A stretch of DNA of 64,000 bases from Psammoneis japonica (GCA_008632985.1 QPGO01000002.1:930001-994000); one strand, 5' to 3'. Positions 2,748-52,422 are shown, numbered from the stretch's first letter. Numbers and translations are program-made. Notes: generated by a model from the letters alone, not told the origin.

Positions 2748-2849
2748 CTGTGGAATGGGAATTTTTGCTTGTGGAACATGCACACACATGTGGATGTTAA
2801 CATTGAAACTCAATGCACGGCGAAGCTGTGTGCACGCAACCACAAACAC

Positions 2850-30949: not shown

Positions 30950-31913
30950 GCAAAAAATGCGTTTTTTACCTGAATTAACCGCGATCACTGCCTTTACAAA
31001 AGACTCCAAATCATCTTTTGCTTTGTAACGATGCAACGTTTCATTTTGAGCCGCTTTCACAACTTCTTCGCTCCCAAACCGAAAGGTTCCCTGGAACGGT
31101 GGTGGCAAGTCCAAATTGCCAAGATCTTGCTCAAGAATGGCAAATCCCCAGTCGATGAGATGCAGTTTGCCCACTGCGTCCTCCAAAATGTCATCAGGCC
31201 GAACATCACCGAAATCCTCACAACGAAGCTCTCACTGCCAATGTCGAACTTTCAACTTGTCAGCACTTCCTTGATTGATCCTGGAAACACATTTTCAACA
31301 GCAGCATCTCCTTCTTGTCACCCAAGAGTCGACACAGAGAATGCATGCTGGATGTGCATTAGCATTAACACACAGCAGCGCTCCCACCCATGCAGTGTCA
31401 TCCCGGTGACATTCAATTTGTGAATGGAGCCAAGTCTCCATGATGCTGTTGTGCTGTTCTCAGCGAGCGATCTAGAGAGCAGAGCAATGCCGATGCAATG
31501 CACTGCATTGCGCCAACACGAGATTTGTCTTCAAGCAGTCCACTGCCGAGCAGGTCTTGGTCAGGGCCAAGATTTCGGCAACATTGTCGCAGGAAAAGGT
31601 TCCGTCGAAGGGCCCAAACAATTGGTCAAAGAACAAGGACACCTGGGGCAACTTGCATGCAATTGTACAAACCAATGACCCCGGATGCATTTAGACAATT
31701 CAACACTTTCTTCGCCTGTTGGGCCACATGCTCACACCCATGTTCCATTGCTTTGGTGACACCATTGGTTTCTCCAAGCTTTGCAGCGCACACTTTGGAC
31801 ATGGCCCCTTCCCCAACAAGAGATCGCATTTGCAGAGATTGGCCGTTGACGGGTTGTTTGAATCTTGGAAAGTCATGGCCTGGATCACTTGAAGACTTTG
31901 ACAACATGGTGAG
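30950..31913 (-). pseudogene. Kinase half of a REase+kinase (Crinkler-like) gene, degenerate
   Basis: LVGEGAMSKVCAAK (Gly-rich loop), DIRPDDILED..GKLHLIDWGFA, FQGTFRFGS, KDDLESFVK. Broken by stops and frameshifts. Confidence 0.75.
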
Positions 31914-32189
31914 TGACAGGATTTGAACAGGATTTAGGTGCGCGCGAAGCATCGCGCGCTGTTTAGTTTACCGTGCACAGTTTTGTGTGCTTTAGTTCCG
32001 CGCGTTCACGCGCGATGTAGTTTGCTTTCGAGCCACAAGGCTCACAAGAATAATAACAGTAGCCCGATTATACCGACTTACACGTCCTTCGGCTCCTGTA
32101 ACGGTCTCTGAGCGGAGACTCATCTGCTATTTAGACAGCAGTAAGGAGTTATTGTTTGAATTCTTGCCATTTGCCTTCAATTTCTATCA
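31914..32189 (+). repeat. 5' LTR (276 bp)
   Basis: TGACAGGATTTG...TTTCTATCA, direct repeat of 38748-39014. Confidence 0.97.
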
Positions 32190-33130
32190 GATTAACAGTC
32201 TTGCTCATTGTCAACCCATTGAGCAACCGCCATCGTCGTCGTTGATTTACCAACGACGCTATTTCAATTCTACGTGGACCTCCGTATATATTCTACATAC
32301 ATCGGCAAGTCTACGCGCATTCAATACCAGGGCATCGGCAGGAAGTTAACGTCACCGTCAAGTCTCCTTACCGCTGGATATCTGGATTGATTATACTACC
32401 TTTGATCGCTGAAGACTTATATTCAACGGTCATATCCAAGTCTATCCTTGATCAACATCCCTTGATATACCTATTCCTCGGTTAACGGTCAAGAACCCTA
32501 CATATTCAAGGATCTTAGTCGCTGAAGACATGTGTGTGTATATACATATCTTCACGGCCAAGAACCTTTATCCACTCTTCGGACTGCGGTTTTGCCACCA
32601 CTCTACAAGCACACCGAGTCCATTGCACCTGATCTACCCTGGACCACTGGTGCTCTACAGTTCCACTAGGTCCACGAGGATGACTGTGAGAGCAGGTGGC
32701 CGTGATTGCAGCCTACGTTGGGGCGAGGATGCTTTCCCGCGTTTGTTCGTTCGTCCACAGCGCCTGACGCCTGCGTCAACTGGCCAGCCTGATCGGGAAA
32801 TCCAACCGACATAAAATAAGAACGGTTCGGGGGTCTTGTCCACCTCCAGTCAGCTTACCTGCAGGGGTTTACAACCCGCTGCTCCACTCGTAAGCAACCC
32901 AAAGCGCCACCAGCTGCGGGTTCGGACGTGCCGGCACAACTCTGCGGACCGGATGGGAAGTTTAGCACTTGACAACGAACGGGATGACAAAGCCCGGCGA
33001 CTTCTGATTTTAAGATGGTTCAAGATTTCAAGTCAAGTCTGTTTCAAGTCAAGTCCATTCTCACCCAAGTTTCGAGTCTACCTTCGCTTCCCAACCAGAA
33101 TTGATTGTCCTGACACCACCTTTGTCTGCC

Positions 33131-36100
33131 ATGGTTCTCACTCGTCAGCAACAAACCGATGGTTTCGAGCACGTGGTTGGAACCGTGCTTGCCCAAGGTG
33201 CTGGGAGTCCTCTTCGTTTGGCTTTGGCCCAAGACGGCACGGACTCGCATCAGGAACTGTTCACGTTCATGCCGTCCCAAATCGACTCGCTTGAGTGCGA
33301 CAACGGCACCAATGCAATCCCTTTGCCCCGTGGTTGTAAGAACATGTTAGCAGCACTGGTCAGTCTGTACATTGTCAAAGCACACAAAGGTCTTGACGTT
33401 GCCAACGACTCCTCTTTGTTCACGCATGACGAGTTCCTTGCCTGCCGCCTCAGCCCCGACTGCATGTCTTCTGTGTCCATCGGCAGCTCACCCCTTGCAC
33501 CTCCACATGTCACCAACCCGACCAAGGCACGCGACCCGGTGCGGGACTTCAAGCGAGGCATCAAGCGTGATCCCACCGCTTTCACGGCTCTCAAATCCGA
33601 CAAGCAGTGGCACACTTGGCACACCTCACTTGTGGCACAAGCCCGTGCCCAAGACGTCGAGTGCATTCTAGACTCGTCGTACAAACCGACCAGCCCCGAA
33701 GACAAACTGCTCTTTGCTGAACAGCAAAAGCACATGTTCGCCGTCTTCGAACGCATCCTTCTCACCGACAAGGGCAAGGCTCTCATTCGCGAAAATGTGG
33801 GGTCTTCTGACGCACAGACCGTCTGCCGCTCCTTGTCTGAGTGCGCGCTTGCCTCCACCCGCGCATCTATCGAGTCCTCCACCCTGCTCACGCACCTCAC
33901 CACCGCGCGTCTTGGTGATGGCACTTGGAAAGGTCCGACCCACGGGTTCATCCTTCATTGGCAAGATCAGTTGCGCAAGTGCGAGGCACTCATCCCGGCC
34001 AGTGACCACTTCTCTGAAGGACAGAAGCGCGTCATGCTCGAGAATGCCGTGCACCCTGTCGAGGAACTCCGTGCTGTCAAGAACCAAGCTGATCAGCATC
34101 GTACGCAGAGTGGCAAGAGCCTCACATGCGATCAACACTGTGGCTTGCTCCTCTCCGCCGCAGCTCAGTGCGACAGCACGTTTCAACCCAAGACGACACC
34201 TCGAGCTCCCCGACGCGCCACATGCGCACACGACGTCTACTCCGAGGAACCGTCCGACGATGTGTTCTACGACATTGACAGCGACGTTGACGTCCTTCAA
34301 GCCAATGCTGCCTGCACCCGCGGTCCCAGCCTCACCGGTGTCCAATGGAGACGTCTCCCTCCCGACCACCAACGGCTCTGGGATTCGTTGCCCGATCAAT
34401 CCAAGGCGATCATCCTTGGGCATTCTCGTCCACCTCCCCGCAACTCGCGAGCCAGCAACTGCCATGAGTCTGTTACGGCCAACCTTCACGACCAACGCCT
34501 TGGGAGTGACGGTGATGTCAACTTGTCCAACACGACTCCTGCTGACTCTGGTGACTCCGCTCCACATGTGGACGCCACTTCGGACAATCCCATCCTGGCG
34601 CACCTCACCAAGCGCAAGCCACTGCCACCCGGTGATCTGCAACGTCTGTTGTCTCCTAACCAAGCACCCAATGCCAGTCGACCGGGGCCATCCGCCGCTT
34701 CCTCTACCCCGCCAGCTTCTGCAGATGACACAGAACTTAACGGTCGCACTTGCCGCCGCGTTGACAACCACAATGTCATTTACTCTGCTTCTGCTCATTG
34801 CTCCACACGCACTGGCGCTCTAGTCGATCGTGGGGCCAACGGCGGCATTGCTGGCGACGACATTCGCGTCATTGCACGCACCTCTCGCCAAGTCGACGTT
34901 CAGGGCATTGACGATCATCAATTGGTGGACATCCCCATTGTCACCGCTGGTGCCGTCATTGAGACCCAGCGTGGTCCCGTCATCGCCATGCTCCATCAGC
35001 ACGCATGCACGGGCAAGGGCAAGACCATCCATTCCTGCGGCCAGCTCGAATGGTGCAAACAGGATGTCAACGATCGCTCTGTCAAGGTGCCCAACGGCTT
35101 GCAACGCATTGCCACTCCTGATGGCTGTGTCATCCCCATTGACATCAAGGCTGGCCTGCCTTGTGTTGCCATGCGACCTTGCACTGACGCCGAATGGGAC
35201 ACCCTGCCCCATGTCATCCTCACCGGTGATGACACATGGGACCCTTCCGTCCTCGATCACTCTGTCACTGACGACGACCAGTGGTGCGACGCGATCTCTG
35301 ACCTGCAGGACGATCCCACTGCCAACCTGTTTGACGAATGCGGCAACTACCGTCATCGTGTCGTTGTCAACGAGACCATCATGTCCGCTTCCTTGTCTGC
35401 CGATCACGCGTCCGCCCTCGATGATCACCTCATTCCGAACGACGACGTGTTCTGCGAGTGTCATCTGCATGCGATTGGCCCCCAGGGCGATGATGTTCCA
35501 CCTCCGGAGCGCACTGTACAGCCCAAGGACCCCCCCTTCGAGTCTCTTCAGCCTTGCTTTGGCTTCCCACCTGCCGATGCGGTCCGTCGTACTTTTGACT
35601 GCACCACGCAGCACGCCCGCATGCCCGCCGGTACACACCTTCGCAAGGCCTGCAAATCACCCAACCCCGCCCTTAATGTGCACCGCCGCAACGAGCCTGT
35701 CGCCACTGACACCGTTCATGCCGACACCCCGGCCGTCGACTCTGGTTGCACCAGCGCCCAACTGTTTGTTGGCACCGAGTCTACCGTCACTGACGTCTAC
35801 GGCACTAAGACAGACAAAGAGTTTGTCAACACACTCGAGGATCAGATCCGTGAACGTGGTGCCCCATCCAAACTCATTGGCGACCGTGCTCAAGTTGAGA
35901 TCAGCAACAAAGTGCTCGGGATCCTACGCGCCCTCTTCATCTCTAGCTGGCAAAGTGAGCCTCACCAGCAACACCAAAACTTTGCCGAGCGTCGACACCA
36001 GACCGTGAAGCGCATGGCGAACACTGTCATGGATCGTTTTGGTTCGCCCGCCCATGCATGGCTGCTGGCGCTCATGTGCGTGTGCTTCACACTCAACCAT

Positions 36101-38791
36101 GCAGCGTCCCCACGTCTCCACTGGCGCACGCCCCTTGAGACTCTCACTGGCTCCACCCCGGACATCAGCCCATTGCTTCGCTTTCACTGGTGGGAACCCG
36201 TGTGCTTCCACCTCGATGACTCCGATTGGCCGTCCGAATCCCGTGAGTTGCGTGGATGCTTCGTTGGCATTGCTGAGCACGTCGGCCACCAGATGACCTT
36301 CAAGATTCTATCTGACGAGAATCAGAAGATCCTCTGCCGGTCCAACGTCCGCTCCGCTGCCCCCGATCCTGCCGCCCGAAACCTGCGTCTTGATCCTCCT
36401 GATGGGGAGCCACCTGAACCCATCATCAAATCTCGCCATGACGACAACCCCGTCGACTCTCCTGATGGGGAGATCAGGACACCCAAGATGCCAGTTTTCG
36501 ATCCGCAAGACATCATTGGACGTGCCTTCCTCATGCAGCCACAAGAGGACGGACAACGCCACAGAGCTCGCATCGTCAAGGCCGTCGAAGACCACGAATG
36601 GAAAGTGAACGGCAATCCCGAGCTCACTAAGTTCGTCTGCTCTGTCAACAATGACGAATACGAGGAAGTCCTTGCCTGCAATGACATCATGAATCACATT
36701 GAGCAAGAAGACGAAGACACCACTGTTTGGAAATTTCGACGCATCGTGTCACACGAAGGACCTCTGAAGCCTCATGACCCAACCTGGAAAGGCTCCAGCT
36801 ACAACATCATGCTTGAACGGGAAAGTGGGGAGATCACGTCCGAGCCTCTTGCCATCATCGCCAAGGATGACCCCGTCACCTGTGCCATCTATGCACGAGA
36901 GAACGGACTCCTCGACACGGATGGCTGGAAGCGGTTCCGCACCATCGCGAGGCACCAAAAGAAGCTATTTCGCATGGCCAACCAAGCCAAGCTTCGCTCC
37001 TTCCGCACTGCACCTCGCTACAAGTGTGGATGCGAAGTTCCCCGGAACTACAAACACGCCATGTCACTAGACGAACGCAACGGCAACCGCAAGTGGGGAG
37101 ACGCAACTAATCTCGAGATGGACCAACTCGACGAATACGAAGTCTTCCATGACTGCGGGCCCTTCAAGTCTTCCACTCCTCCTGCGGGACACAAGAAGAT
37201 CCGAGTGCACCTGGTGTACGACGTGAAACACGACGGTCGCCACAAGGCACGACTCGTAGCCGACGGGCACCTCACGGACGTACCTGTCGACAGTGTCTAC
37301 TCCGGAGTAGTCTCCCTCCGTGGCCTTCGGCTGATGATTTTCCTGGCCGAACTCAACGAGTTGGAGACATGGGCCACCGACATTGGCAATGCCTACCTTG
37401 AAGCCACCACCAAGGAGAAGCTTTACATTGTAGCTGGACCCGAGTTCGGCAAACTCGAAGGACACATCCTTGTCATCCACAAGGCACTGTATGGACTGCG
37501 CAGCTCCGGTCTCCGCTGGCACGAGCGCTTCGCCGACTGCCTGCGAGCTGAAGGCTTCTTCCCCTGCCGCGCCGAACCCGACATTTGGATGCGCAGGAAC
37601 GGCGACCACTATGAATACATTGCCGTTTATGTGGATGACCTTGCCATTGCCATGAAGGACCCTCAATCTTTCGTCGACACCCTCACGGAAAAGCACAAGT
37701 TCAAGCTCAAGGGTGCGGGACCCATTGAGTTCCATCTGGGTTGCGACTTTTCCCGGGAACCCGACGGAACCTTGTGCCTGTCTCCGCGCAAGTACATCGA
37801 GCGCATGGTCGACAGCTGTGCCCGACTGTTTGGGGAGAAACCTGCCACCAACGCCCTGTCACCTCTAGAGAAGGGTGACCACCCCGAACTGGACACTTCC
37901 GAACTGCTGGGACCCGATGGCATCCACAAGTTCCAGTCTCTTGTTGGTTCACTCCAATGGGCAGTGTCCCTTGGTCGAATTGACATTGCCACGGCCGTCA
38001 TGTCACTCTCTAGCTTCCGAGCTGCGCCCCGTCAAGGCCACTTGGATCGTGCCAAGCGCGTCTGTGGGTGCCTCTCCAAGATGCGACACGGTGCTCTCCA
38101 CGTTCGCATGGAAGAGCCCGACCATTCGGATCTCCCTGCTCCGGCCTGTGAATGGATGCATTCCGTGTATGGTGAAGCAGAAGAGATGATCCCGAAGGAC
38201 GCTCCACCGCCCCTTGGCAAGTTCGTCACTGCCACCCACTACGTCGATGCAAACTTGCACCATTGCATGCTCACCGGACGCTCTGTCATGGGAATGCTCC
38301 ACTTCCTCAACAAATTCCCGGCTGATTGGTTCTCTAAGAAACAAGCCACCGTGGAGACTGCGACCTGCGGGTCTGAATTTGTTGCCGCAAGGACTTGTGT
38401 TGAGCAGATTATCGACCTGCGCATCACCCTGCGCTACCTTGGCGTCCCGATCCGTAACGTTAGTTACATGTTCGGTGACAACAAGTCGGTTGTAGACAGT
38501 GCCACCATCCCGCACTCCAAGTTACACAAGCGACACACCGCACTGTCGTTCCACCGTGTGCGTGAGGCAATTGCCTCTGGTTACCTTGAGTTCCACTTCA
38601 TCGAAGGCTCCCGCAACCCTGCTGACATTCTCAGCAAGCATTGGGGTCACTCCCAAATCTGGGACCTTCTCCGCCCCCTCATGTTCTGGAACTTCATTCC
38701 ATCCGAAGTCGAATCTGTTTCTGTGGCTCCTCAAGCAAACTGGGGAGTGACAGGATTTGAACAGGATTTGGGTGCATCACGCGCTGTTTAG
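33131..38791 (+). CDS. Copia gag-pol polyprotein (protease, integrase, RT, RNase H), open but heavily missense-mutated
   Basis: Protease ALVDRGANGG, integrase VATDT...DRAQ...AERR, RT HKARLVADG...DIGNAYL...LYGL...YVDDL, RNase H DNKSVV...NPADILSK. Copia domain order. Confidence 0.95.
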   Translation: MVLTRQQQTDGFEHVVGTVLAQGAGSPLRLALAQDGTDSHQELFTFMPSQIDSLECDNGTNAIPLPRGCKNMLAALVSLYIVKAHKGLDVANDSSLFTHDEFLACRLSPDCMSSVSIGSSPLAPPHVTNPTKARDPVRDFKRGIKRDPTAFTALKSDKQWHTWHTSLVAQARAQDVECILDSSYKPTSPEDKLLFAEQQKHMFAVFERILLTDKGKALIRENVGSSDAQTVCRSLSECALASTRASIESSTLLTHLTTARLGDGTWKGPTHGFILHWQDQLRKCEALIPASDHFSEGQKRVMLENAVHPVEELRAVKNQADQHRTQSGKSLTCDQHCGLLLSAAAQCDSTFQPKTTPRAPRRATCAHDVYSEEPSDDVFYDIDSDVDVLQANAACTRGPSLTGVQWRRLPPDHQRLWDSLPDQSKAIILGHSRPPPRNSRASNCHESVTANLHDQRLGSDGDVNLSNTTPADSGDSAPHVDATSDNPILAHLTKRKPLPPGDLQRLLSPNQAPNASRPGPSAASSTPPASADDTELNGRTCRRVDNHNVIYSASAHCSTRTGALVDRGANGGIAGDDIRVIARTSRQVDVQGIDDHQLVDIPIVTAGAVIETQRGPVIAMLHQHACTGKGKTIHSCGQLEWCKQDVNDRSVKVPNGLQRIATPDGCVIPIDIKAGLPCVAMRPCTDAEWDTLPHVILTGDDTWDPSVLDHSVTDDDQWCDAISDLQDDPTANLFDECGNYRHRVVVNETIMSASLSADHASALDDHLIPNDDVFCECHLHAIGPQGDDVPPPERTVQPKDPPFESLQPCFGFPPADAVRRTFDCTTQHARMPAGTHLRKACKSPNPALNVHRRNEPVATDTVHADTPAVDSGCTSAQLFVGTESTVTDVYGTKTDKEFVNTLEDQIRERGAPSKLIGDRAQVEISNKVLGILRALFISSWQSEPHQQHQNFAERRHQTVKRMANTVMDRFGSPAHAWLLALMCVCFTLNHAASPRLHWRTPLETLTGSTPDISPLLRFHWWEPVCFHLDDSDWPSESRELRGCFVGIAEHVGHQMTFKILSDENQKILCRSNVRSAAPDPAARNLRLDPPDGEPPEPIIKSRHDDNPVDSPDGEIRTPKMPVFDPQDIIGRAFLMQPQEDGQRHRARIVKAVEDHEWKVNGNPELTKFVCSVNNDEYEEVLACNDIMNHIEQEDEDTTVWKFRRIVSHEGPLKPHDPTWKGSSYNIMLERESGEITSEPLAIIAKDDPVTCAIYARENGLLDTDGWKRFRTIARHQKKLFRMANQAKLRSFRTAPRYKCGCEVPRNYKHAMSLDERNGNRKWGDATNLEMDQLDEYEVFHDCGPFKSSTPPAGHKKIRVHLVYDVKHDGRHKARLVADGHLTDVPVDSVYSGVVSLRGLRLMIFLAELNELETWATDIGNAYLEATTKEKLYIVAGPEFGKLEGHILVIHKALYGLRSSGLRWHERFADCLRAEGFFPCRAEPDIWMRRNGDHYEYIAVYVDDLAIAMKDPQSFVDTLTEKHKFKLKGAGPIEFHLGCDFSREPDGTLCLSPRKYIERMVDSCARLFGEKPATNALSPLEKGDHPELDTSELLGPDGIHKFQSLVGSLQWAVSLGRIDIATAVMSLSSFRAAPRQGHLDRAKRVCGCLSKMRHGALHVRMEEPDHSDLPAPACEWMHSVYGEAEEMIPKDAPPPLGKFVTATHYVDANLHHCMLTGRSVMGMLHFLNKFPADWFSKKQATVETATCGSEFVAARTCVEQIIDLRITLRYLGVPIRNVSYMFGDNKSVVDSATIPHSKLHKRHTALSFHRVREAIASGYLEFHFIEGSRNPADILSKHWGHSQIWDLLRPLMFWNFIPSEVESVSVAPQANWGVTGFEQDLGASRAV

Positions 38792-39014
38792 TTTACCGTG
38801 CACAGTTTTGTGTGCTTTAGTTCCGCGCGTTCACGCGCGATGTAGTTTGCTTTCGAGCCACAAGGCTCACAAGAATAACAACAGCAGCCCGATTGTGCCG
38901 ACTTACACGTCCTTCGGCTCCTGCAACGGTCTCTGAGCGGAGACTCATCTGCTGTTTAGACAGCAGCAAGGAGTCATTGTTTGAATTCTTGCCATTTGCC
39001 TTCAATTTCTATCA
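38748..39014 (+). repeat. 3' LTR (267 bp)
   Basis: Copy of the 5' LTR with a 9-bp deletion and 10 substitutions. Confidence 0.97.
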
Positions 39015-40210
39015 GTGAGCAGTTGGCGTTGTCCATCACAACCAGGTTGCAGCGAGGCCGGCCTCGAAATTTTAGAAATGAGTTCACCCGCAACCTCCCT
39101 TGTCTCTACCCAGCACATCAATTTCTCACCTGAAGCACAACAGAAAAGTGCTGCGCAAGCTCGTGGCCGACCCCTTTGAATGGAGAGCAAATGCTCGTCA
39201 CAGTCGACAATCTCCATTGGATCAGCATCATGAAACTGTTTCTTCTGCTCAAATGCGATTGCGATGTCATGCTTCGAATTGGGTGTTTTGACTCTGTCAG
39301 ATGAAGCTGCCAGCACTCCATCTGGCATGCATTCAGTCGTGTGGAAATCAGGTTCAACGCTGGCTGACATTCCATTGTCTGGCTTGAGCCAATGACCTGA
39401 TTTCGACCAGAACAATTGCTGGTGGATTGAGTGTCCACCGGCCACTGCAGAGTCGACAAGCTTTTTCATCTCACGAAGAAAGCAAGGATGATGCACTCCC
39501 ATTTCATCTTGTGAAGGGCTTGGTGCGTTGCTCTAGAATGCATCTGTTGAAACAGGATCCACGAGATTGAAAAAGAAATCCTCTCCAAAAGAGACGCGAT
39601 TCTGGACAACCAAGCTGGAAAATGCATGACTCTTGGACACATGGGAAAGAGTGCGTTTTGGATGCCCCTTGTCTTCAACAATCCTGTGCTTGACAATCAA
39701 CGATTCCAGAACCTCTTCCACATGCCTTTCAGCAGAAGCTGCATCCCCAACTTCTCCCACGTGCAGTTTGAATGCATGGGGTCCGTCATGAGCATTTACC
39801 GTCTTGTCATTCAAAAGGCCAATGTCTTGGCGGTCGAAGAGTCCTCTGACTGCTGCCATGCCAAGCCTCTCCAGAGCCTGCAATTTCATGTCGCCCACTC
39901 AAACCTTGCCTGACACTGTTCCCCTGCCATCCCTCACTTTGACAATGCTTCTTGACATGCTTCCCTTCCTCTCTGGCTCATTTCACCACCATGTGGATGC
40001 CTCCAGAGTGGGACGATGTCATCACACAATGTGCAAGCATTCAGTGGATGGCAATCTCCACCGCAAACTCCTTTTCAGGATGAAGAAGAAAAGTTGTGAT
40101 CGTTTGTTGTGAAGAAACAACAGCAGCAACTCCACCGGATGTCTTGCTTGCACCAATCTGCTTGTGATGATCTGCTGGAATGCTTCTTCAATTGATTTCA
40201 TCCAACGATT
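39015..40210 (-). pseudogene. N-terminal/REase half of the gene interrupted by the copia insertion
   Basis: EPDF...IAIAFEQKK is PD-(D/E)xK-like. Removing the element and one TSD rejoins GQRQLLT to MLSKSSS in frame. Confidence 0.65.
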
Positions 40211-43200
40211 GCTGCATGAAAGTGGGGGGGCGAAGCGACCCCGTTGCTGCTGCAACAACAAGAGAGAAGCAAGGAAGGAAGAGAGACAACGAAGGCAGCA
40301 AGCAAAGAATTGAAAGTGGCAAGTGACAAGTTGAAGTGATGGGTGGTGCGTTGTTGCATTTGCGCACTGCCACAACGCACAACACATGTGTGTTCGGTTG
40401 TTGAACATGAAGCACATGAGCCAATGTCACATAAAAAATGGCTTGGGTTGATTTCATTTGGGCACCACTGCCACCCCCCATTTCTCGTCTTCCATCTTGG
40501 TCCCAACCAAAGACGAAAGAAAGGCTAGAACCACAATGCTGACAATGAATTTACATTTGCAGGCTGCTTTGATGAACAATGTTCATCATGTGGCGCTCAC
40601 CCTCCAGCAGCAACCCACACCAGCAAAAGTTTGTTTTGGAAAGATGGAAAATCCCACCCGCGCACCACGGTGGCAACAGAATTTTTGAGCAAGAGCCCAC
40701 TGAAAATTTGGTGGCACCTGCAGTGGCAGCCAAAATGTTGACAAACTCACCCAAAATTGATCAGCAGGAATTGGAGTGCAACAAGGCCCAAGGTGCAGAA
40801 TGTCGTGCCAGCGGGGATGAGTGGCAACCTTTTCTTGGGAATCTGCAGACTTGGATTTTTTTGTGCTTGGCCCATCAGGCAGCATTGGCAGTGGCTCATG
40901 GTTCCTCTTGTGTGGGTTCACCACAGTTGACATGGGATTGGACTGAGTTGAATGTGGGTTTCTTGTCCCATGCTTGTTGTTGCACATGCATCGGTCTGTG
41001 TCGCTTGCTGCTGCTGCACCGGTTGCAGCCCTTCTCATTTCTGGCTGCACTCTTGTGCTTTTCAATTGTTCTGGGTGCACTGTCAAATGTCACTTGCCAT
41101 TGTCTTCTTTCAGTTCTTCAACATTCTTGGGCACAGGATGAGAGACTCCTGCTTGCTCTGCCAGCGTGTTGACATGCTGTTGGAGCTTGCTGCTGCAGTT
41201 GAGCAGGAAAGCAGGAATGCCTTGAAAGGCATGCAGAATCTTGGCACACTTGTCTGCCATCATTTTGTCAATTCAGAGATGCTCTTTAATTGACATGTTT
41301 TGCACTCACACGTTCCCGCAAGGCACAGCACATCCACTGGCAAGCTTTTTGAACTGGTGCTTCCAAAATGCTTGACGATGTGGTGGCACTTTTCAAGCTT
41401 CGATTCCATGCAGGTGGTTGTCACAAAAGTGTTGAGCTTACACTTGGACCATTTTGAAGGCTTCACAACTCTGTGCAAGTCTTCATGTGGCAGCCACTCA
41501 CCGCCGGCTTTGCATCTTCTTTGGCACAAAGTGGCTTGCCAGAATCTGGGTCGCACCACCTGCCCACCCACCTCTCCGCCGCTCCGGGAGATGCAGAGCC
41601 CTTGTGCAGATCAAACCAAGATTAAAGATTGCTGTTCCATGTTTCCTCAGGCTGAGTCCACCTTTGAATGTGCTTTTTGCAATTGCACTTCTTCCTTTGT
41701 GTTTTTCTTCCCACCAAGTTTTCCAAAGATGAGAGCATCAATCACCCTCGCCTTGTCGGGTTCGTTGTTGTGCTGCACGCAATCCTTCAACTCACAAACT
41801 GCATGACAACAGTCAATGTGAGTGCCTTGCAATGTCCAAATGATCCAGTTGGTCCAGTGGTGCCAAAGACCAAGCCTGCATGCAATGTCCAGACCATAAA
41901 TTTGTTTCCAAATTTCTTCCTCATTTGGCCAGGTGTCCGAGCAATGAACTTGAGGTTGACATTCGGATGCCTCACAACCTGCTCCAGTGCATGGGCACAG
42001 TCTTTTGTCTCCAATGTTGGCACAACTGCATCTGTGCCAATCTCTCCTGTCTCTGTGGCCATGGTGAAAAGTCCCTCTTTCCATTGTCATCTTCACAATT
42101 CTTCAACTGGTCAAAAGTGTGGTCAGACACAACACTGATGCAACAACCCACCAATTGAATTTTTCTTTTGTGTGCCAGATGTTGTTGCTTGTGCCAGTCT
42201 CAATGAGGTTTGATTGCCAGGCAAAGTCATGCATGTCTCTTGTGTTTTTTCCTGTGGGTCCATGGCAACTAATCCAATCCTCAAATGCCAACAATGCAAT
42301 CACATCTGAGTGCATCTTTCAACAAAGAACAGCACATCTCCTCTTTGTCAACAAAAGTTTTGCCTCTTTGTTGATGAAGAAAAGAAGAAATGCCATTGCC
42401 CTTGCTGTGCATTTTCATTGCATGGTCAACATGTTGCAACATTGGAAGCATTGGATGAAAATGACAGATTTGCAGCTGCATGTTGTGGGTCCAAGGGACA
42501 GCTTGTTTGGAGAGGCCTTGGCAGCTGCTTGGCCAGCCTTGCACCATTGCCCTTGCATCTGCAACCACACTTGTTGAGCTTGTGCATCATTGCTGTTGCC
42601 CAATCAGCAGCACCTCTTAAGTCAAAAATTGGAGTTGGCAGATTCTCATTCTTGATGTCAAACTGCTGGTGCATCAACTCACCATTGCATCCATCATCAA
42701 TGCACTCCAAACATGCATTGAGGTGGTTCAATTCCCAGTGGATGGCATGAACTGCAACACCTTCAATCTCACTGAAGAGGTCATCAGGAGTTTTGGTTGT
42801 GTCATCATGTGGCACTGCGCAAATGACATGGCATCAGGAGGGAAGTTCTTCTGACACCATTGGAGCTTCTTGGCATTGACATCACCACCCATGATCTTTG
42901 TTCAAGTTGGCATGAAACTGAGATGGGCACAAGTTTAGAAAATGCAGTGTCAAAGCCTGTGCCAGTGCAGGACAAGAAATTTTCTTCTTTTTGCATGTGT
43001 CAACTCACCTCTCAAGAAAGAGGGTCTTCTTCAATGTCAGTGAAAGAACCTGTGGCACTGTTTGACGTGGCGGTGCTGACAGCAGCGGTGGTGACAGGTG
43101 ACAGCATTGGACGAGTTGGTCATTGCAGATGGCTTGTTGTTTTTTGAAGCCCTGGCACCATTGTGGAACTGTGCCTCCTCCACACCTTCCTCAGCTGAGG

Positions 43201-44400
43201 GCTTGCTTGGTGCTCATGTTTTGCCATGGCAGATGGATTTGGGGCAGCTTGCATCATGACCCCTTTTGCAAAAGGGCCCTTGTTTGCACCTTTTGCACAA
43301 CAACCTTTTCTTGAGTGGTGTGGCTGTTTGGCAGAGTCAGAATTTGCAACTCTGCCATCACCGCTGGCGACATTGTAAACCAAGGCACATTTTTCTTGTC
43401 AACTCAGCAACTCCAGAAAAAGCTTGCTCCTTTGCTTTTTTCATGGCTGGCTTTTAAGCCTGAGACTGAATGCCTGTGGTGTTGAGAAGCTTGAGCAGAG
43501 GGTGCTTCTCCATTCTGCTGCAATTCCTTCTCTCAGAACTCTCTTGCACAGGTTGGTGCTGATGATGAGTGAGATGAAAAAGGGCCGGAGGAGTTTGAAT
43601 TTTTTGTGGGGTGTCTTTGTCTGAGCACTGCCACTCAGATTGCAGCACATCCATCTGAGATGGCTCAACCAAGATGGTCATGTCTGTGTTGCAGGAATTG
43701 TCAAATGATGTGATGACATGCATTCTTTCAAAAAGCTTTGAGCATTGCAGCATGTGTTCTTGAAACAAAGATGCTGCAATGCTGTCTGTGGCAACGCACA
43801 ACCAGGAAATGACTCCTTGAAAACCTTGCATCCAACTGCTGGGCATTGCAGAATGGCCAGTTTTGCAAAAAGAGAAGCACTGAGAATGGCAGTGAAGACC
43901 CATTGCAAGGTCATGAGTGCATTCATGACAGACAGATTGGGTCTCACAATGTGGGCCAAATGGTGGCTTCAAGTGAATTGTTCAATCAATCAATCATGCT
44001 TCAGAGATGGAGCACATGGCAGATTCAGACATGGCTCCATTCAACCTTCCTCAAAGAAGGGCAGTGAGAGAGAGAGGTGAAGAAGCTCAAGTTGAAAGAT
44101 GGGGGGTGCTTGATTCATTGAGTTGTCAAGACCCTGGACATTTGCCCAAACCGCAGTGGCAACAGCCACCACCATTTGGCAAGACAACAGCACAGCCACC
44201 ACCACCACCACTGCAGAGTGGAGTGATGGATGTGCACATTGTTTGGGACAATTGCATCATGAACAATGACGACAATGTCCCGCCAATTTGTCACATGCAT
44301 GGATGCCCTTTCCATTGATGCAACGCAACAGCAGAAGCTGGATTTGTTCTTGCCCATGTTGTCATCCACCCATTCACCTGAATCTCCCACACAACAACGA
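40210..44400. other. Strongly TpA- and CpG-depleted block of fossil coding/TE sequence
   Basis: Very few TA over ~4 kb. Protein-like fragments on the minus strand at 41260-43100 cannot be assigned. Confidence 0.55.
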
Positions 44401-44479
44401 TGATGTCCACAGCCCCATGGCATGTCCAATTGCGCGCCAACTTCAAATTGTGGTGAGACAGATCAATTTGCCAAAAGGG

Positions 44480-45320
44480 GTCACATGATGGAAGGATGTG
44501 ACAGCATCATCTGTGATCGCAACAACAAGGAGAATGGGCTCCAATGATGCAAGTGCCTGTCCAGCCACACAAAATGAATGACAAGGGGTTCACAGTCTCT
44601 GCCTGCATTGTTGTCACATGGACACACCCAAAAATGGGTCGATGGCAGGCATGATTCACAAAAACAAACACAACCCACACAACTCAACCAGCTTGACTTT
44701 TTGTTTCACACCACACTGCAGCAAGTGACTCCTGGTCACACAAACGGCCAAAAGGGCAGCATCCAGTGACTCCCATGGTGGCACCAATTTCCATCGCACC
44801 CACATGCAAATGGCCGAAAGGGAGGCATCCACCCACACCTCAATGTGCAGTCCATTGCACAGTGAGCACTTGTCAAAAAATTTTTCATCCAAGTGGTGCC
44901 ACACTTTTGCATGAGGGTGTGCTTGGTTTGACAAAAGGTGCACATGTCATTCAGGAATGGTTGTGTGTTGATTGAACAACAGATGCTCAAGACAGGCATG
45001 GTGGGTGGGGGTGACGCAATGCCAATGTCAAAATGTCACGGACATTGTGAGGTGTGTCATCAGGTTCAGGCTCGGTCAACAAGGAGGCATCATAAAACAA
45101 TCCATCAGGAAAGGTGTGTGCATTGGTGGCATCTGGATTGGACCATTCCATGTGCAACAACAAGTCATTGCCAATGTGTGGCAAGGGGCAAAAACAACAA
45201 AGCATTGTCACTGCTGCTGCTGTTGCCACAAGACAACAAAGCTTTAAAAGCTGGTTCACACTTCTGCTCACATTGTCTTTGCAACTGAATCTCTCCTGGG
45301 AGTGCTTGGTCACAGTCCTC
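44480..45320 (-). pseudogene. Fossil type II membrane gene, possibly sulfotransferase-like
   Basis: Hydrophobic N-terminal segment, then LMQKCGTTWMKNFL resembling the 5'-PSB loop (KxGTTW). Frameshifted and TA-depleted. Confidence 0.4.
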
Positions 45321-45358
45321 GTTCCATTGTCGCTCGCTCAAGAGGATCACTGGTCATC

Positions 45359-46107
45359 ATGTCTGCAACTTCGTTTGTGGCTCAATTTGAAGGCAATGAA
45401 TTGTGGGAAGCATCCTGGAAGGAGTCAGAAGGGAGCAAATGCACAAAGAAAAAGAAGAGTGACGGATTCAACTTTTATGCATCTTGGTTCTGTCCTTTTG
45501 CACAGCGGTCTTGGATTGCACTGGAAGAGGCCGGGGTTGACCACAACTGTGTCGAGGTGAATTTGCACAAGGAGGACCATCTGAAAAAGGATGTTACACA
45601 AAGAAAGCTCTGAGTCTCGAGAAAAAACGAGAGCTGTGCCCAGAATTCATCAGGGCGCCAAAAGATCCGTATGAACGTGCAATGGTCCAGATCTGGAGCG
45701 CCCATTGCACTGATCGAATCAACAATGCACACTGTCTAGCACTGGTGGCTCAGGATGCGAAGAAGCAACAACAACACGTTTGGCAGTTTCTGTTGGAATG
45801 CCGTGCATTGTCCCAAGCCATGAGCAAGAACGGTCCTTACTTTCTTGGAGATCGCTTCTCCATGGTCGACATAGCCTTGGCGCCATTCTTTCAGCGCATT
45901 CTGTGGGTAGGAAAACATTATATTGGGTTGGAATTGCCATTGGACGACGAGGATTTTGTTCGGTTAAGAAATTGGTGGGAAACGGTCCGCAAACGACCAT
46001 CAGTGGCTGCCACCATGGTTTCTAGGGATCGGCTTATTTCTTCATATTCGCACTACTCAAGGAACATCGCAACGTCAGACTTTGCAAAAACTGCCTTGAG
46101 TAATTAG
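45359..46107 (+). pseudogene. Glutathione S-transferase (omega-like) pseudogene
   Basis: FYASWFCPFAQRSWIALEE, PKDPYERA, GPYFLGDRFSMVDIALAPF. Frameshift at ~45590 and apparent loss of the G.VP...ES segment. Confidence 0.8.
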
Positions 46108-46236: not shown

Positions 46237-46812
46237 CTATGGCTCAATCTCTACAACGCACTCCACTTCTGTCGTAATGTTGAGTGGCAGTGCGTTGGTT
46301 CCGACAGCAGAACGGGCATGAACTCCACGTTCGCCAAAGACTTGAGCAAACAAATCAGACGCCCCATTAATCACTTTAGGTTGCTCTTGAAAGTCATTGG
46401 TACAATTGACAAAGCCCACAACCTTGACAATTCGTTTGATTCGACCCCAATCGCCGCCCAACTCTCGGTTGAGGGTGCCCAGAATATTCATGGCACACGC
46501 ACGAGCACTATCATATCCGTCTTGTGTCGACAAGGTATCTCCAACTGTGCCTTGGATCAGCTTATTGTTTGGCCCCGCCGTTGGTATATGGCCACATAGA
46601 TACAGCATGTTTCCCGTCTGGACGCAACTGACATAGTTTCCTTTTGGCGCGGGTGATTCAGGTACAACAATGTTTAGGTCTTCCAACTTTGCCTCGATTT
46701 CTCTCGTCCTTTTCTTCCGTGACAGTTTGCGAGCAAAAATCACAAATGAACAACCAGCTGCGACGCAACTCGCAACAAGAGCGCTTGGTGATATAGACGA
46801 AGAGGGCGGCAT
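46237..46812 (-). CDS. RidA/YjgF/UK114 family protein
   Basis: PKGNYV..VQTGNMLYLCGH, IVKVVGFVN, QPKVINGASDL...GERGVHARSAVG..LPLNITTEVE. Confidence 0.93.
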   Translation of the reverse strand: MPPSSSISPSALVASCVAAGCSFVIFARKLSRKKRTREIEAKLEDLNIVVPESPAPKGNYVSCVQTGNMLYLCGHIPTAGPNNKLIQGTVGDTLSTQDGYDSARACAMNILGTLNRELGGDWGRIKRIVKVVGFVNCTNDFQEQPKVINGASDLFAQVFGERGVHARSAVGTNALPLNITTEVECVVEIEP

Positions 46813-46899
46813 CAGGAGCGTTGATTTTTGACATCAGAAGAAAAATGAAAGAGAATGCTGAAATACGGTGCATGGAATCTGAAATCCGCGCCACAGCAG

Positions 46900-49800
46900 G
46901 CTCCCGCGAATTCGAAGGACGGACCGACCCTGTGCAAAGAGCTTTCAACAAAACAAACCGAAAATCATGGAAACACGACAATCGATTTCTTCATCCCATC
47001 CGTGCCAGAGCTTGTGCATTGCAGTTGAAATGGAAAGTGTTGGAGGGTTGTTTTGTCAATGCTGTTCTTGTCCAAGGCTGGACGAGATCAAAGTCATTGC
47101 ACTTTCTGGCTGGCACTGTCACGTCTCTTGGCTGTGACAACTGCTCCATTTGTGTGAGACTTGGCCAAACAGCTCATGCTTGCTGTCATTGCAGATGTCA
47201 TGTGCTGTGATGTCACGCCTCGGCCCCGCTCTGCTTTTGCTTCTGTGCCCTGAAGTGTGGAGTGTGAGATCACAGGCATGTTTGTTGAGTTGACAGCATC
47301 ATCTTTGGCGCTCCTCCAGCATCAACGGAGCTTTGTCTTTCAACACCCTCGTGGGTGTTGGCACCAATCATTTGGGCTGGATGATCATGATGAGCAGAAA
47401 GACAGGAAACAACAGCACAGCAGCTTGATCCTCTCACCACACCATGCCACAGTGCTGAAAAGTTGACCACTTGCTTTGGGCGACATTGCAGCACCAATGA
47501 TTTGAGAGCAGCTTGAGATCCATGGGTCGGTGACAAGGAAGAATGCAGCATTTGCAATTCTGAAAACACAGAGCTTTGGTGCACAGAGGCAGTGCAGCAT
47601 TGTGCCACCAAAGTCACCCGCGCTGACCTCATCTCCACAAGTTGTGCAGCACAAGCCACATGAAATGTGCACAACAACAAGCTGCCGGTCATGTGCACAA
47701 ACTTTGCCTTGTTTGTGCTGCACAAGCACTCACAGTGCTGTGCAGTGTCAACTGTGCCACACCTGTGTGATTTGCATGGTTTTTGTGTCATCAACAGCTG
47801 CACCTGTTGAGGAGTGAGGGCTGTCTTCTTGCTTTTCCTGCCAGAGTTGTCTGCAGCCTCCTCTGATGATCTCTCATGACACACTGCCATGTGTCCAGGA
47901 GCTGTGCAGAAAATTGCACATGCCAAGTTGTGTGGGCTTTTGTGGTGCCATTTTTGGGCATGTTTTCTTGGTGCATTTCCTCATGCCCATGACAACATCA
48001 AAGGAAAAATGATGCAATCACACAACCGCGAGCAATCCAGTGCTGCTTCATTCTCCCACTGCGCTGGTGGAGAATCCCTCCACTCTGAGTTTTTGGCAAA
48101 TGGGCTCACCTTTGGGGAAATTTGAAACATTTGGTCAGCTCAAATTGTGCACACCAAGAAGACACACATGGCAAAAAGAAAGAAGGTGTTTTGAAGCACC
48201 ACCTCATGGCACCCATCAGCTGCCAGCTTTTGTCGTGTTGCCTTTTTTTGGTGGGGGGGGGCAAGCCCAAGTTGCGCACTTTGTCAATTTTTTTTAAAAC
48301 CAAGAAGTCAATGAGACAACTTGGCTGCCAATTGCAGGGGGGGTGTTTGAGCAACAAAGAGTGAACACACATTGTGAAACAAAATGGCAAGGATGCCCTG
48401 CACTGACCTGTGCATTGCAAGCAACTCAGTTTGCCAGGTTTGTGTCATTTTTGTGTCTGCAAATTGAGCAGAGATTTTGCAAATGTGAGGGAGATGACAC
48501 AGCATTGTGCTTGATGGGTGCTGTGTCCACACACCCCACACACAACATTGTGGAAGATCATTGTTTGAGGGGCCCAACCACCAAAATAACAGCGCCATTT
48601 GCTTGGCTAAAAGAGGAGCCTGCATGCCTTGCATGCTGTTGGCTGCATGGCACTGGCACTCTGCTAATGTGGTGACCTTCTCAGCTGGCACTTGGGGGTG
48701 GGAATGTGACTGACCCTGCAGTTGAGTGGCAAAGTTGACCATGACCTTGTTGCAGTCACCTTGGCACCACATGTTCTTTGACTTTGTGGTGGAAATCATC
48801 AAAAGCACAAGCGGCTGGAGGCAGGGTGAAGGGTGCCACACTGTGTGGAGCCAGTGGTTGTGGGGGCAGCAGCTGGGCCACTGCCAGAAGAGCTGGCCCA
48901 CTGAGAGCACTGCAGCCCTTTGTCTGGCTAGAGGGGATGCCAGGTGTGTGGGCACCCCTGGGGCAGTGGCAGGCTCCCTGGTGTCACTTGGTGTGTGATG
49001 ATGTGTGGCAATCAACTGCCCACAGATGTCTCTTGCACATCTTTTTTTGCTTTGTGGGAAAAAATGGCCAAAGGAGGAAACAGGGGCAAAGAGGATGTCC
49101 TGTGGTGGTTGGCAACCAACAGATGTGCTCAATGTGCACATGTCATCCAACAATGTGTGCAGTGGGTTCTCCCAATGCTTGTGCTTCTCAAGGCCAGTGA
49201 TTGCTTGTTGATGAGCAACATGGCAAGACAAACCAGTGCTGGCCACTTTTTCAGTGATGAGAACTGTTTTTCTTATGACCATTTTTCCTCTTCTACTCTG
49301 ACCATCTCACATGAGAGCTGTGGTTGCAGATTCTGCATGTCATGCTGTGAGGGCACCGACTGTGCAAGTTTCACCCCTGGGAATTTTGTTCAATGGGAGA
49401 TGACACACTGAAGAAAAAACACAGCTGACACCCTGCTTTTTTTGTGGGATGATGCATGGAAGAAAAAACCAGGGCTGACACCCCAGCACAAAAAAGGTGG
49501 GAGTTGGGGTTGTGCAAAAGACAAAACCAGGGCTGGCACACACACAAAAAGGCAGGGTCAGCGCATGATGATTGAAGTGTGATGGCATGAACAACTTTGT
49601 GTGCTTCAAACATGACAATGGCAAGTGATTCAATCAAAGAACAACCAGCCAACAATGAGTCAGTGCTGAACATTGATCGCCATTGCTGCCATCAACTCTT
49701 GCCACCAGCCACCATTTTGCTCCCTGAGCTCTTTCATGTGAGCTTTGTTTTGCCACTTTGTGAGTTGTGATGGCTCTCTCTGCTCTGCCTGCCACTGGTT

Positions 49801-50950
49801 GGCAAAGAGCTTGGAGTCTTCTGCCACCCCTGGCAAGACCAAATGAATGCTCATCATGGCACACAGCAGCTTGCAGGGTTGCACCTGCAACACAGGGAGT
49901 TTGCTGGTCAAATGTGTGGTTGACATTGTCTCTCTGACCTGCAGCATGCCTGAGCACACATGCATCATGAATGCCTCAGGTTCAATCACTGCTGCTTTCA
50001 CACCCACAATGAAAAAAGCTTCCTTTTGATCGACAACTTGCTGGGGCCACTGAAGGCATTGTTTTTTGCTGCTGAGCCTGGCACCCACTGCCCCCACCCC
50101 CCCTCATTTCTTGTTGCCAGCACTCAAGCAACAAATGTCTTTGTGTTTGACCTGACAACTGGTGCTCTGCCTTGCCGGCAACAAAAATGTCATGACATCC
50201 AAATGACCTCATTTCTCTGACTTTTGCTGGTGTCAAGAACATTTCTGGGCCAACTCTCAGTGCAAATTGCAGGCCATTGCTCTGTCATCTGGTGTGTGGT
50301 TGCTCCAAGATGCTGTGCTGTTCTAAACAAGCACATGTCACACAACACAGCTGTTGCTGGTTGCAGTGCTGCAGCGGCCCTTGTTCAAACTTTCCTGGAG
50401 ATTCGCACAAAGCAAGTGTGTGCCAAAAAGTTGTCTGGAATGAGCTGTGTGGACAAATCACACAGCTTCTTGACTTGGGGTGGAGCAAGCCATGCAAACA
50501 GCCCCACTCATCCAGAGTGATCAACCTGGTTGTCAGAGGAGATCAACAACACAACGTCATCTTGACAAGGTTTTTTCATGGTCAATGAGGCACATTTCTT
50601 TTTTGGCTGTTGCAGGCCCACCAGCATCTCTCACCATTTCATGCCCAGATCAAGATGAAACCAATGCAAACATGCACTTGCAATGAGCAAAACAATCTCA
50701 TGGCTGACTCACATTCTGAGCCTTGCGAAAAAGGCGGTGATTTCATGCGTTGTGAGATGCGTGTGACAGAACACATGATGGTGGTGCACATCCTTCCTGT
50801 CAAATGCCAGCTCCATGCACTCACAACAAACAAAGACAATGTCGTGGCTGACTCACATGCTGAGCTTTGTGGCAAAGGTGAGAGTTCATGCATCATCTTG
50901 GCATCATGAGACACAACATGGCATGACGACTTGCACCTCCGCAAATTTTC
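46900..50950. other. TpA/CpG-depleted degenerate repeat block
   Basis: Almost no TA. Shares a ~65-bp segment with 53282-53348. Internal ~45-bp repeat at ~50692 and ~50836. Confidence 0.55.
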
Positions 50951-51274
50951 TAAACATGTTTTCGATCATTAATTCCACATTTTCGAGAATGAATACAGCA
51001 CTCGAATTTAATTTTATTCGGAAACGGAAAACACAGCATTTCGAAATTTTGCGTCGCGCCAACCAAAAACTCGAAAAACTGAAACACCACTTCGCCGCTT
51101 ATTGACCCACATCATTGCGGCAACCAAGGCAAGTACCGGTAAGGGAGAGAGATGGACATTCTAAAGCGTCGAGAGAGCGATGCAGTGGAGGGCGTTGCTG
51201 AACACACAGTGCCGCATCAATGCAAAAAAGAATCAGAGAGAGAGAAAACGCCGCTTAAAAAAATGCACGCCACA

Positions 51275-52422
51275 ATGTCATGCCATAAAATGCGCCGGTG
51301 CTTTTGTGCTGTTTTCTGTGTCTTCTTGTCATGGATTTGTGTAAATTGTTTTCGCAAGCACCGGTTCCTACCATCATTGGAATTATCGGATGTTTCTGGC
51401 ACTGCTGCTGAGGACCAACCTCTTGTTGGAGGAGAAAAGGCACACTTTGTCGTCTTTGTTCGTATCCCCAAAACGGCAAGGTATAGTTATGGCTCTCGAG
51501 GTGGGCTGCATTCGAACACGTGTGTGCATGGTTTGCGCGTATTTATGATTGTGTGCCACTTACTCTACTCTCCTTTTTAAAATGCTCATCCAGCACTTCT
51601 GCCATTTCGTTTTTCGACCAAAACATGATGAGCATGGATCAGTTGTTGACGACCCAACAACGTGATGCTTTACCAAAAATATCCACACGAGTGTTGCCCT
51701 GCATGTTTGGGCCCTTGAAGAGCAAGAAAAGGCCGGACCGTATTCGCCGCGAGTGCAATCATTATGGATACCAAGAGGGCTTGTACAGCACCTGGCAAGG
51801 TGCAATTGAAATGTTGAGTGAAAACAATGAAACATTGCGAGGAATTAGGAACGAAACATTGTTGCCGACCATGCAAGCCGTCACTTTTGTGCGTGATCCC
51901 TTTGATCGTTTGAGATCGCTCTTTGATTATGTCTATAAACATCGCAAGGGGGAATTGTGGAAACGGCAGCACACAACAAAACAATGGGAAAAGCTGCTTG
52001 CCCATGACTTTCCTGGATGGTTGAATCTCATTTATGAAGAGAAGGCGCATCCCATGGGAGCACAATACGAGTATTTAGATGACGACAGTGTGGATACGGC
52101 CATTGCCATGATTACCGGCAAGACACCAACCGTGACGGTTCTCGTTACCGAGTGCTTTGAAGCCAGTTTGCGCCTGTTGAAAAAGCGAGTAATGCTACTC
52201 AATCATGATTCGGTTGGCGACTTTGTGGGATCGACAAGGCTTCGATCGAGACAAAATGATACGACACATGATGATGATAACTTATTCGAGGACCTGCGAG
52301 AGCAAAGTAAGCGATACTTTCCAGAAGAATACAAGTTTTACAATGCCGCCGTTGACCAGTTTAAACGACAGGCGGCAGCATTCAACATGCCTCTTGGTGA
52401 TGTGAACAAGTGCAGAATCTAG
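51275..52422 (+). CDS. Sulfotransferase-family type II membrane protein; intron ~51481-51580; start uncertain
   Basis: TM segment, VVFVRIPKTA/SSTS (5'-PSB), VTFVRDPFDRLRSLFDY (3'-PB). Confidence 0.75.

Follow-up and report, generated by a model that had tools for sequence, protein, structure and literature searches.

A Ty1/copia retrotransposon and the DNA around it in the diatom Psammoneis japonica bear the marks of a process that probably turns TpA into TpG or CpA in targeted regions of the genome. The element, bounded by long terminal repeats (LTRs), occupies positions 31914–39014 of a 64,000-nucleotide stretch (GCA_008632985.1 QPGO01000002.1:930001-994000). This whole stretch is referred to as the window, and positions are counted from its first base. 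The 3' LTR would be among the targets and would have been changed after integration. The changes are specific to TpA, occur on both strands, have a clear direction in the open reading frame (ORF) of the element and form regional patches outside it, in which the TpA and CpG deficit is balanced by an excess of CpA and TpG. The two strands were affected about equally: four TpG and five CpA in the LTR, nine cysteine and seven histidine codons in the ORF, and observed/expected ratios of 1.79 for TpG and 1.84 for CpA in the patches.

The element is a Ty1/copia LTR retrotransposon, as shown by a Ty1/copia reverse transcriptase domain (RVT_2) in a long ORF, direct LTRs, TG...CA ends and a 5-bp target duplication. 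The 5' LTR (31914–32189, plus strand) is 276 bp long and the 3' LTR (38748–39014, plus strand) 267 bp, and both begin with TG and end with CA. GTGAG stands directly outside both of them, at 31909–31913 and 39015–39019. Because this duplication is intact at both ends, the element is one insertion. Its interior is filled by an ATG-started frame on the plus strand (33131–38791; 1886 amino acids plus stop), separated from the 5' LTR by a leader (32190–33130, plus strand). RVT_2 (residues 1350–1562; 37178–37816, plus strand) is the sole Pfam match of the polyprotein (E = 2e-29). Models of integrase, protease and gag gave no match to the polyprotein (33131–38788), even at E ≤ 5, and the 120 listed polyprotein relatives likewise carry PF07727 alone among their precomputed domains. 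Self-BLAST returned the LTR pair alone, i.e. no second copy of the element in the window.

TpA is unevenly distributed along the element. The 5' LTR keeps all of its 17 TpA (observed/expected 0.89), and the leader has at least 10 TpA per 200 bp up to about 32600 and fewer beyond. The 5' LTR and some 400 bp of the leader are thus near expectation (0.89–0.95). In the polyprotein frame, the ratio is 0.24 for TpA and 0.93 for CpG. The 3' LTR has eight TpA.

Both LTRs of a retrotransposon are copied from one template during reverse transcription and are identical at integration. In the present element, their alignment contains 10 substitutions, exclusively transitions, and one indel, whose 9 bp are found in the 5' LTR. 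Nine of the ten read TA in the 5' LTR and either TG (31936, 32070, 32072 and 32129) or CA (32054, 32060, 32099, 32142 and 32150) in the 3' LTR, with T/C and A/G changes interleaved along the repeat. The tenth is CG at 31954 and CA at 38779. An earlier first-pass annotation, made from the sequence alone, had reported the indel, the ten substitutions and the nine TpA sites, with TA invariably in the 5' LTR and a four-to-five split, and our alignment and site list agree with it. Its count of 9 of 17 TpA changed also stands, but the 1 of about 17 CpG set against it does not, as the 5' LTR has 20 CpG (1/20). From the 5' to the 3' LTR, TpA falls from 17 to 8 and CpG from 20 to 16, and CpA plus TpG rises from 35 to 45. 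When coded as purines and pyrimidines, the LTRs are identical over 242 bp.

The concentration of LTR differences at TpA is real and far beyond chance. The TpA of the 5' LTR make up 34 of 267 aligned columns, which contain 9 of the 10 substitutions (binomial P = 7.8e-8). The 9:0 one-sidedness, with TA always in the 5' LTR, gave P = 0.004 in a sign test, and the excess of changed TpA (9/17) over changed CpG (1/20) gave P = 0.002 in Fisher's test. With the 3' LTR as the mutated copy, 9 of 34 TpA bases changed, compared with 1 of 233 columns outside TpA (both LTRs), a difference of about two orders of magnitude. No extended motif distinguishing changed from unchanged LTR TpA was evident by eye.

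The LTR pair alone gives no direction, because a RIP-like (repeat-induced point mutation) change of C to T at CpA in the 5' LTR fits equally. In that case, the 5' LTR would be the mutated copy, nine TpA would have been created by cytosine deamination (C→T at CpA, G→A at TpG) and the changes would have affected 9 of the 45 CpA/TpG seen in the 3' LTR. RIP classically acts at CpA (available text of PMC2621366), and the 5' LTR with the leader is the sole TpA-rich part of the element. The ORF and the surrounding DNA bear on the choice between the two directions.

For the ORF, the best 120 of 1112 full-length protein relatives (48–62% identity) were aligned with the polyprotein using MAFFT. A column was considered a conserved-tyrosine column when at least 80% of the relatives had tyrosine, which was the case for 38 columns. 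Here the element has 18 tyrosines, 9 cysteines, 7 histidines, 3 phenylalanines and 1 tryptophan. All 16 histidine and cysteine codons are CAY or TGY. Since tyrosine is encoded by TAY and the outgroups give the ancestral state, these codons represent TA→CA and TA→TG changes. When each of the 120 relatives was left out and scored in turn, histidine plus cysteine accounted for a mean of 1.5% of conserved-tyrosine columns (a maximum of 30%), and only one relative reached at least 10%. The control columns of the element were nearly unaffected: conserved histidine was kept in 25/25, cysteine in 4/4, phenylalanine in 28/29 and tryptophan in 21/23.

The overall composition changed in the same sense. 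Tyrosine (1.4%), histidine (4.6%) and cysteine (2.8%) were each outside the range of all 120 relatives (2.9–4.6, 2.6–4.3 and 0.5–1.3%, respectively). A total of 68 differences were found at 720 conserved columns, comprising 21 single TpA→CpA/TpG steps, 8 CpG steps, 14 multi-step changes and 25 other single-step changes. TpA was depleted in all three codon phases of the ORF (observed/expected counts 27/92, 15/58 and 20/93). Conserved tyrosines survived more often in the RVT_2 span (7/8) than elsewhere (11/26; P = 0.04), and because of this, the alignment hints that the element lineage was under selection while being mutated. No close protein copy of the polyprotein was found; the best of the 1112 matches was 62% identical.

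A single relative had a comparable footprint. P0193, from a metagenome assembly (1888 amino acids, 51% identical), has 4 histidines and 7 cysteines at 37 conserved-tyrosine columns, the only such case among the 120, and the lowest tyrosine content of the relatives (2.9%). Judging by this protein alignment, the TpA process may act in its organism, too.

Outside the element, six patches with a total of 18,463 bp were nearly devoid of TpA. Their edges were taken from dinucleotide profiles and are approximate: 1000–4700, 18000–19500, 31026–31913, 39015–45400, 46800–50950 and 52875–54710. The third and fourth are the left and right sides of the patch holding the copia insertion. The fourth has a TpA-free run of 1638 bp (43455–45093, 109 TpA expected) and the fifth one of 1431 bp (46864–48295, 91 expected). 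Taken together, the patches contain 62 TpA where 1181 were expected (0.05) and 333 CpG where 1127 were expected (0.30). CpA (2075 observed, 1126 expected) and TpG (2111 observed, 1180 expected) were in excess. The combined deficit of TA and CG (1913) approximately equals the combined excess of CA and TG (1881), and the other 12 dinucleotides range from 0.90 to 1.22. Elsewhere in the window, excluding the element (38,436 bp), the ratio is 0.59 for TpA and 1.02 for CpG. For example, the segments 39001–45000, 47001–51000 and 1001–5000 have TpA ratios of 0.00–0.27, with CpA and TpG each at 1.45–2.19. The patch sequence is complex and does not consist of simple repeats, and profiles at 200-bp resolution show rather sharp patch edges. 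This depletion can arise by converting TA and CG to CA/TG but not by C→T at CpA: only the former fits, because the TA and CG deficit balances the CA and TG excess.

Read-derived contigs from four runs of one sample were aligned to the element at a likeness of at least 80%, and the best 40 of 462 variant rows were used. In run X1, contigs at the patch edges showed 0 differences over 31700–31938 and 1 difference over 38985–39300. The former is anchored in the unique flank and includes one of the ten LTR sites (31936). Because the contigs match the edges this closely, a long-read base-calling artefact is unlikely beside the element. The patch edges are at single-copy depth where covered (53.7 for the left-flank contig and 63.4 for 39066–39300).

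With the patches in view, the LTR pair can be read in one direction. Read from the 5' to the 3' LTR, every one of the ten substitutions replaces TA or CG with CA/TG, and these are the same two conversions that are saturated in the patch around the element. The 9 bp missing from the 3' LTR are present in other family copies (read-derived contigs), so the 3' LTR is derived for the indel too. Under the reverse reading, TpA would have been gained nine times, CpA would have become CpG once and an insertion would have occurred, all in a TpA-losing genome. On this indirect polarisation of the nine sites, the 3' LTR is likely the mutated copy. The first-pass annotation had interpreted TA→TG and TA→CA as one TpA-specific event on both strands, and this interpretation is supported by the ORF polarisation, the patch balance and the LTR direction.

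The RIP-like alternative fares poorly with the same observations, and we regard it as quite improbable. The polarised ORF changes run oppositely, with TpA depleted, and the ORF is open over 1886 codons with none of the stop codons that RIP produces. The window has no RIP product signature, since TpA reaches at most 1.07 of expectation in any kilobase and no AT-rich block is present, and its host genes resemble those of diatoms rather than fungi. RIP would further require that CpA became CpG at the tenth site and that the 5' LTR gained 9 bp, which are found in other copies as well. Of the 14 listed leader rows, a single one (32420) has TA here and CA/TG in the others. As a weaker point, the 40 of 462 listed rows include position 32087 of the 5' LTR with about 100% support and none of the nine sites.

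Searches for another DNA copy gave 0 matches in viral contigs, both with the polyprotein and with a 22-base LTR word. In metagenome contigs, the LTR word gave 0 matches and the polyprotein led to one locus, which at 49% identity is too distant. This copia relative (L001:1-2352) has an observed/expected ratio of 0.24 for CpG and 0.60 for TpA, a case of CpG decay without TpA erasure.

The reads contain many family copies. In run X1, 14,310 contig pieces were aligned to the element, with a summed depth of approximately 62,000–132,000 compared with 54–63 for unique-flank contigs; summed contig depth is not equal to copy number. Based on the piece count and this depth relative to the flank, the copia family is read as very abundant. 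Among the 40 of 462 listed rows, three adjacent double differences, in which CA here corresponds to TG elsewhere or the reverse, were found at 32911/12, 34136/37 and 34223/24 (39–50% of family depth). One of them affects codon 336, a conserved-tyrosine column, where this copy has CAC and roughly half of the family depth has TGC. The simplest history of such double differences would be an ancestral TA (or CG) that changed on different strands in different copies. TpA loss is still sorting within the family, because codon 740 is TAC here and TGC in 89% of the family depth.

The leader also contains a (TG)n/(TA)n microsatellite (32523–32554), in which 32534, 32536 and 32538 are G here and A in 23–44% of the family depth.

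A family of this size offers another source for the LTR differences. Ectopic gene conversion, or short-read polishing of a long-read assembly at a repeat, might have copied a TA versus CA/TG polymorphism of the family into one LTR. Copies do vary between TA and CA/TG at 33315, 33336, 34221, 35349 and 35454. Moreover, 8 of the 10 LTR differences lie within 97 bp (LTR positions 140–236), and contig support anchored in the unique flank exists for 1 of the 10 sites. The differences nevertheless span LTR positions 22 to 236, for which one short tract is insufficient, and the intact target duplication excludes recombination of whole elements. We consider such an import unlikely for the LTR pair. It would in any case shift only the place of mutation, as the polymorphism itself still needs a TpA-specific process.

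A signature of this kind has been described in Bigelowiella natans (hereafter B. natans), a chlorarachniophyte. Its mutation-accumulation lines contain two regions of integrated viral DNA in which the mutation rate is about 1000-fold that of the remaining genome. Of the 231 mutations recorded there, 230 were changes from A to G or from T to C, each of them in a TpA (2026 preprint by Mettrop et al., bioRxiv 10.64898/2026.01.13.699255). An ADAT2-like protein was put forward as a candidate there. The first-pass annotation had stated that no characterised system of this kind was known to it, a statement overtaken by that preprint. The following comparison refers to its available text.

The similarities are close. 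In both cases, changes are confined to TpA, lead to TpG and CpA and are bounded by regions, and the footprint consists of runs of 1-kb windows poor in TpA and rich in CpA plus TpG. Among the TpA-poor genes of B. natans, reverse-transcriptase and transposase domains are enriched, and most of the affected sequence is unannotated. The differences concern host, target and extent. B. natans is a rhizarian and the present host a stramenopile; the target there is a giant-virus/virophage insert, and here an LTR retrotransposon together with anonymous patches. Erasure goes further in the diatom, with a TpA ratio of 0.05 over 18.5 kb compared with 0.45 in the region of B. natans derived from nucleocytoplasmic large DNA viruses (NCLDV). 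CpG is co-depleted here, whereas the available preprint text contains no mention of CpG, LTRs or retrotransposons. B. natans has experimental mutation data, while the diatom case is known from sequence alone. No report of TpA hypermutation in diatoms was found in the literature, including the available text of the diatom transposon papers PMC2806351 and 10.1101/2025.10.24.684338. The present case would thus be a second occurrence of this kind of hypermutation, in a diatom, on a retrotransposon, saturated and with CpG loss.

Selection could, in principle, replace mutation bias as the cause. TpA (and CpG) would then be removed because they are read or cut, for example by a nuclease or through RNA decay directed at UpA, and the host ORFs are indeed TpA-poor in all three codon phases (observed/expected about 0.4–0.6). 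However, such selection would have to prevail over conserved tyrosine at 16 of 38 columns and extend to one insertion's LTR, which is non-coding. In the anonymous patches, it would have to eliminate some 1100 TpA through transitions alone and equally on the two strands. In B. natans, the signature appears as new mutations under minimal selection (available text of 10.64898/2026.01.13.699255). We regard selection as highly improbable.

Editing during the retrotransposition cycle is a further alternative. Element RNA would be edited from A to I, or the cDNA deaminated, and the changes fixed with each insertion. A-to-I enzymes, ADAR among them, favour U before the edited A (available text of 10.64898/2026.01.13.699255), and most tyrosine to histidine or cysteine changes seem to be common to many copies, with contigs differing at 137 of 7812 ORF bases. 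Against this, the strands are about equal in the ORF, the LTR and the patches. The LTRs were made from one template, so their differences arose after integration, and erased patches at single-copy depth where covered lie beside the element. We give this explanation almost no credence.

The other known systems share some features with the present case. Fungal RIP likewise introduces regional transitions at one dinucleotide on both strands and targets mobile elements. RIP, however, is a fungal process that depends on duplicated DNA; by changing C to T at CpA, it generates TpA, stop codons and AT-rich sequence. In the diatom, TpA is lost and GC increases, stop codons cannot be produced, and the patches beside the element have single-copy depth where covered. 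The analogy with RIP drawn in the first-pass annotation is apt at the level of regional, both-strand transitions on mobile elements. Deamination of 5-methylcytosine at CpG accounts for the CpG→TpG/CpA changes of the patches and for the tenth LTR substitution, but it cannot remove TpA. A-to-I editing by ADAR or ADAT and cDNA editing by APOBEC3 resemble the present changes in that they are deaminase-type transitions directed against repeats and viruses. These enzymes act on RNA or single-stranded cDNA with a strand bias, whereas here both strands are affected, after integration and also outside the element. In E. coli, very-short-patch repair of T:G mismatches converts CTAG to CCAG/CTGG, which is a route from T:A to C:G at TpA without a deaminase. 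The resulting CTAG depletion is tetranucleotide-specific, bacterial and genome-wide, and the depletion here is regional.

Several observations weigh against a regionally targeted TpA process with post-integration change of the 3' LTR. A uniform process acting in place does not predict the 9:0 asymmetry of the LTRs, both of which adjoin erased patches, and does not predict the TpA-rich leader either. The polarisation of the nine LTR sites is indirect, and none of the 40 of 462 listed variant rows falls on any of the ten sites. Sixteen of the listed rows are transitions at which the present copy disagrees with 80% or more of the depth; two of these have TA in the others and two have TA here, so that no private mutation burst is visible in the interior of this copy. 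The outgroups are at most 62% identical, and the tyrosine to histidine or cysteine changes are directional but undated. The sole precedent is an unreviewed preprint on another supergroup. Finally, Pfam and phmmer searches revealed nothing transposon- or virus-like in the patches, and a defence against foreign DNA is therefore not established for them. The 5' LTR and the leader may have been spared by promoter chromatin or transcription, or the LTR may have been converted or mis-polished.

With these points taken into account, we still consider a regionally targeted TpA process the probable cause. It would change A:T to G:C at the palindromic TpA, on either strand of chromosomal DNA and within targeted regions. 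In the lineage of the copia family, conserved tyrosine codons would have become histidine or cysteine codons. In the anonymous patches (about 18.5 kb), TpA conversion would have proceeded to saturation. After integration of the present copy, the 3' LTR would have lost 9 of 17 TpA and the 5' LTR none. We infer in-place action on double-stranded chromosomal DNA, because the LTRs were identical at integration and the single-copy flanks are affected as well.

The CpG loss probably has a separate and ordinary cause. Diatom transposons are CG-methylated, and CpG in the patches would probably have turned into CpA/TpG by 5-methylcytosine decay. The two losses are separable, because the copia ORF is depleted of TpA (0.24) and retains its CpG (0.93).

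Conversion of TA to CA or TG cannot create an in-frame TAA, TAG or TGA. As it never makes stop codons, affected elements keep open frames, unlike those affected by RIP, and the open frame of 1886 codons is no sign of an intact element.

Chemically, an ADAT/TadA-like or another deaminase might convert adenine to inosine, a guess that we hold only tentatively. A modified base at TpA and an error-prone polymerase had also been named as candidate mutators in the first-pass annotation. The role of the process would be defence against mobile or foreign DNA; the copia element itself is mobile DNA. A wider scheme is more speculative still. In this scheme, a domain-wide diatom genome defence would be tied to silent, cytosine-methylated chromatin, where an enzyme acting on double-stranded DNA would drive all palindromic pyrimidine-purine steps (TpA and CpG) to CpA/TpG, be it a dual adenine/cytosine deaminase or one acting through a TpA base modification. 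It would be shared by stramenopiles and rhizarians and form an old eukaryotic counterpart of RIP that would disable elements through missense changes (tyrosine to histidine or cysteine) without making stop codons.

If a TpA process is indeed at work, TpA-specific A:T→G:C hypermutation is not confined to one chlorarachniophyte but extends to diatoms, an important group that is accessible to experiment. In the window, it would have rewritten about one third of the DNA outside the element. A second, distant lineage would be available for asking whether the process is of ancient or convergent origin, and LTR pairs could serve as natural before-and-after records of its effect on a retrotransposon. 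LTR-divergence dating, the apparent intactness of ORFs and dinucleotide-based calls of genes or foreign DNA would be unreliable in such genomes. A natural enzyme making A:T→G:C changes in double-stranded DNA at a defined step would also be of interest for base editing.

The host genes of the window are of diatom type. The best named matches of a Deltex-type ORF were diatoms at 43–52% identity (including Cylindrotheca, Attheya, Amphora and Pseudo-nitzschia), and those of an ABCF ORF were diatoms at 69–82% identity (including Grammatophora, Pseudo-nitzschia, Chaetoceros and Skeletonema). Neither ORF had a near-identical protein match.

The patches contain 109 ORFs of at least 90 amino acids, 0 of which scored above the Pfam curated cut-off. 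Searches with two long ORFs gave the same picture: an ORF of 349 amino acids had 0 phmmer matches against 1.84 billion representatives, and one of 332 amino acids had no usable Atlas match. A reading of the long patch ORFs as genes was rejected, as 7 of 300 first-order Markov simulations reached at least 349 and 13 at least 332 amino acids. ORFs of this length arise about by chance because the patches lack TAA and TAG. A self-comparison in purine/pyrimidine code (32-mers) revealed no hidden likeness between patches, or between patches and the copia element, beyond that found by BLAST.

A few repeats were found in and near the patches. In the first patch, tandem-like repeats of about 180–620 bp with 82–87% identity occupy 1332–2502. 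In addition, an inverted pair with 80% identity lies at 877–1085 and 2519–2732. A tandem duplication of about 250 bp (52255–52757, 92% identity) is located in the non-erased gap between the fifth and sixth patches. These two patches are linked by a 66-bp direct repeat (48552–48617 and 53281–53346, 4.7 kb apart) with 89% identity, of which 58 bp are exact in purine/pyrimidine code and which could be the end remnants of an old element.

Outside the element, only the kilobases 16001–17000 and 60001–61000 had TpA at expectation (1.07 and 1.05, respectively). In the rest of the window outside the patches, the ratio was about 0.4–0.8, and the host ORFs were TpA-poor in all codon phases.

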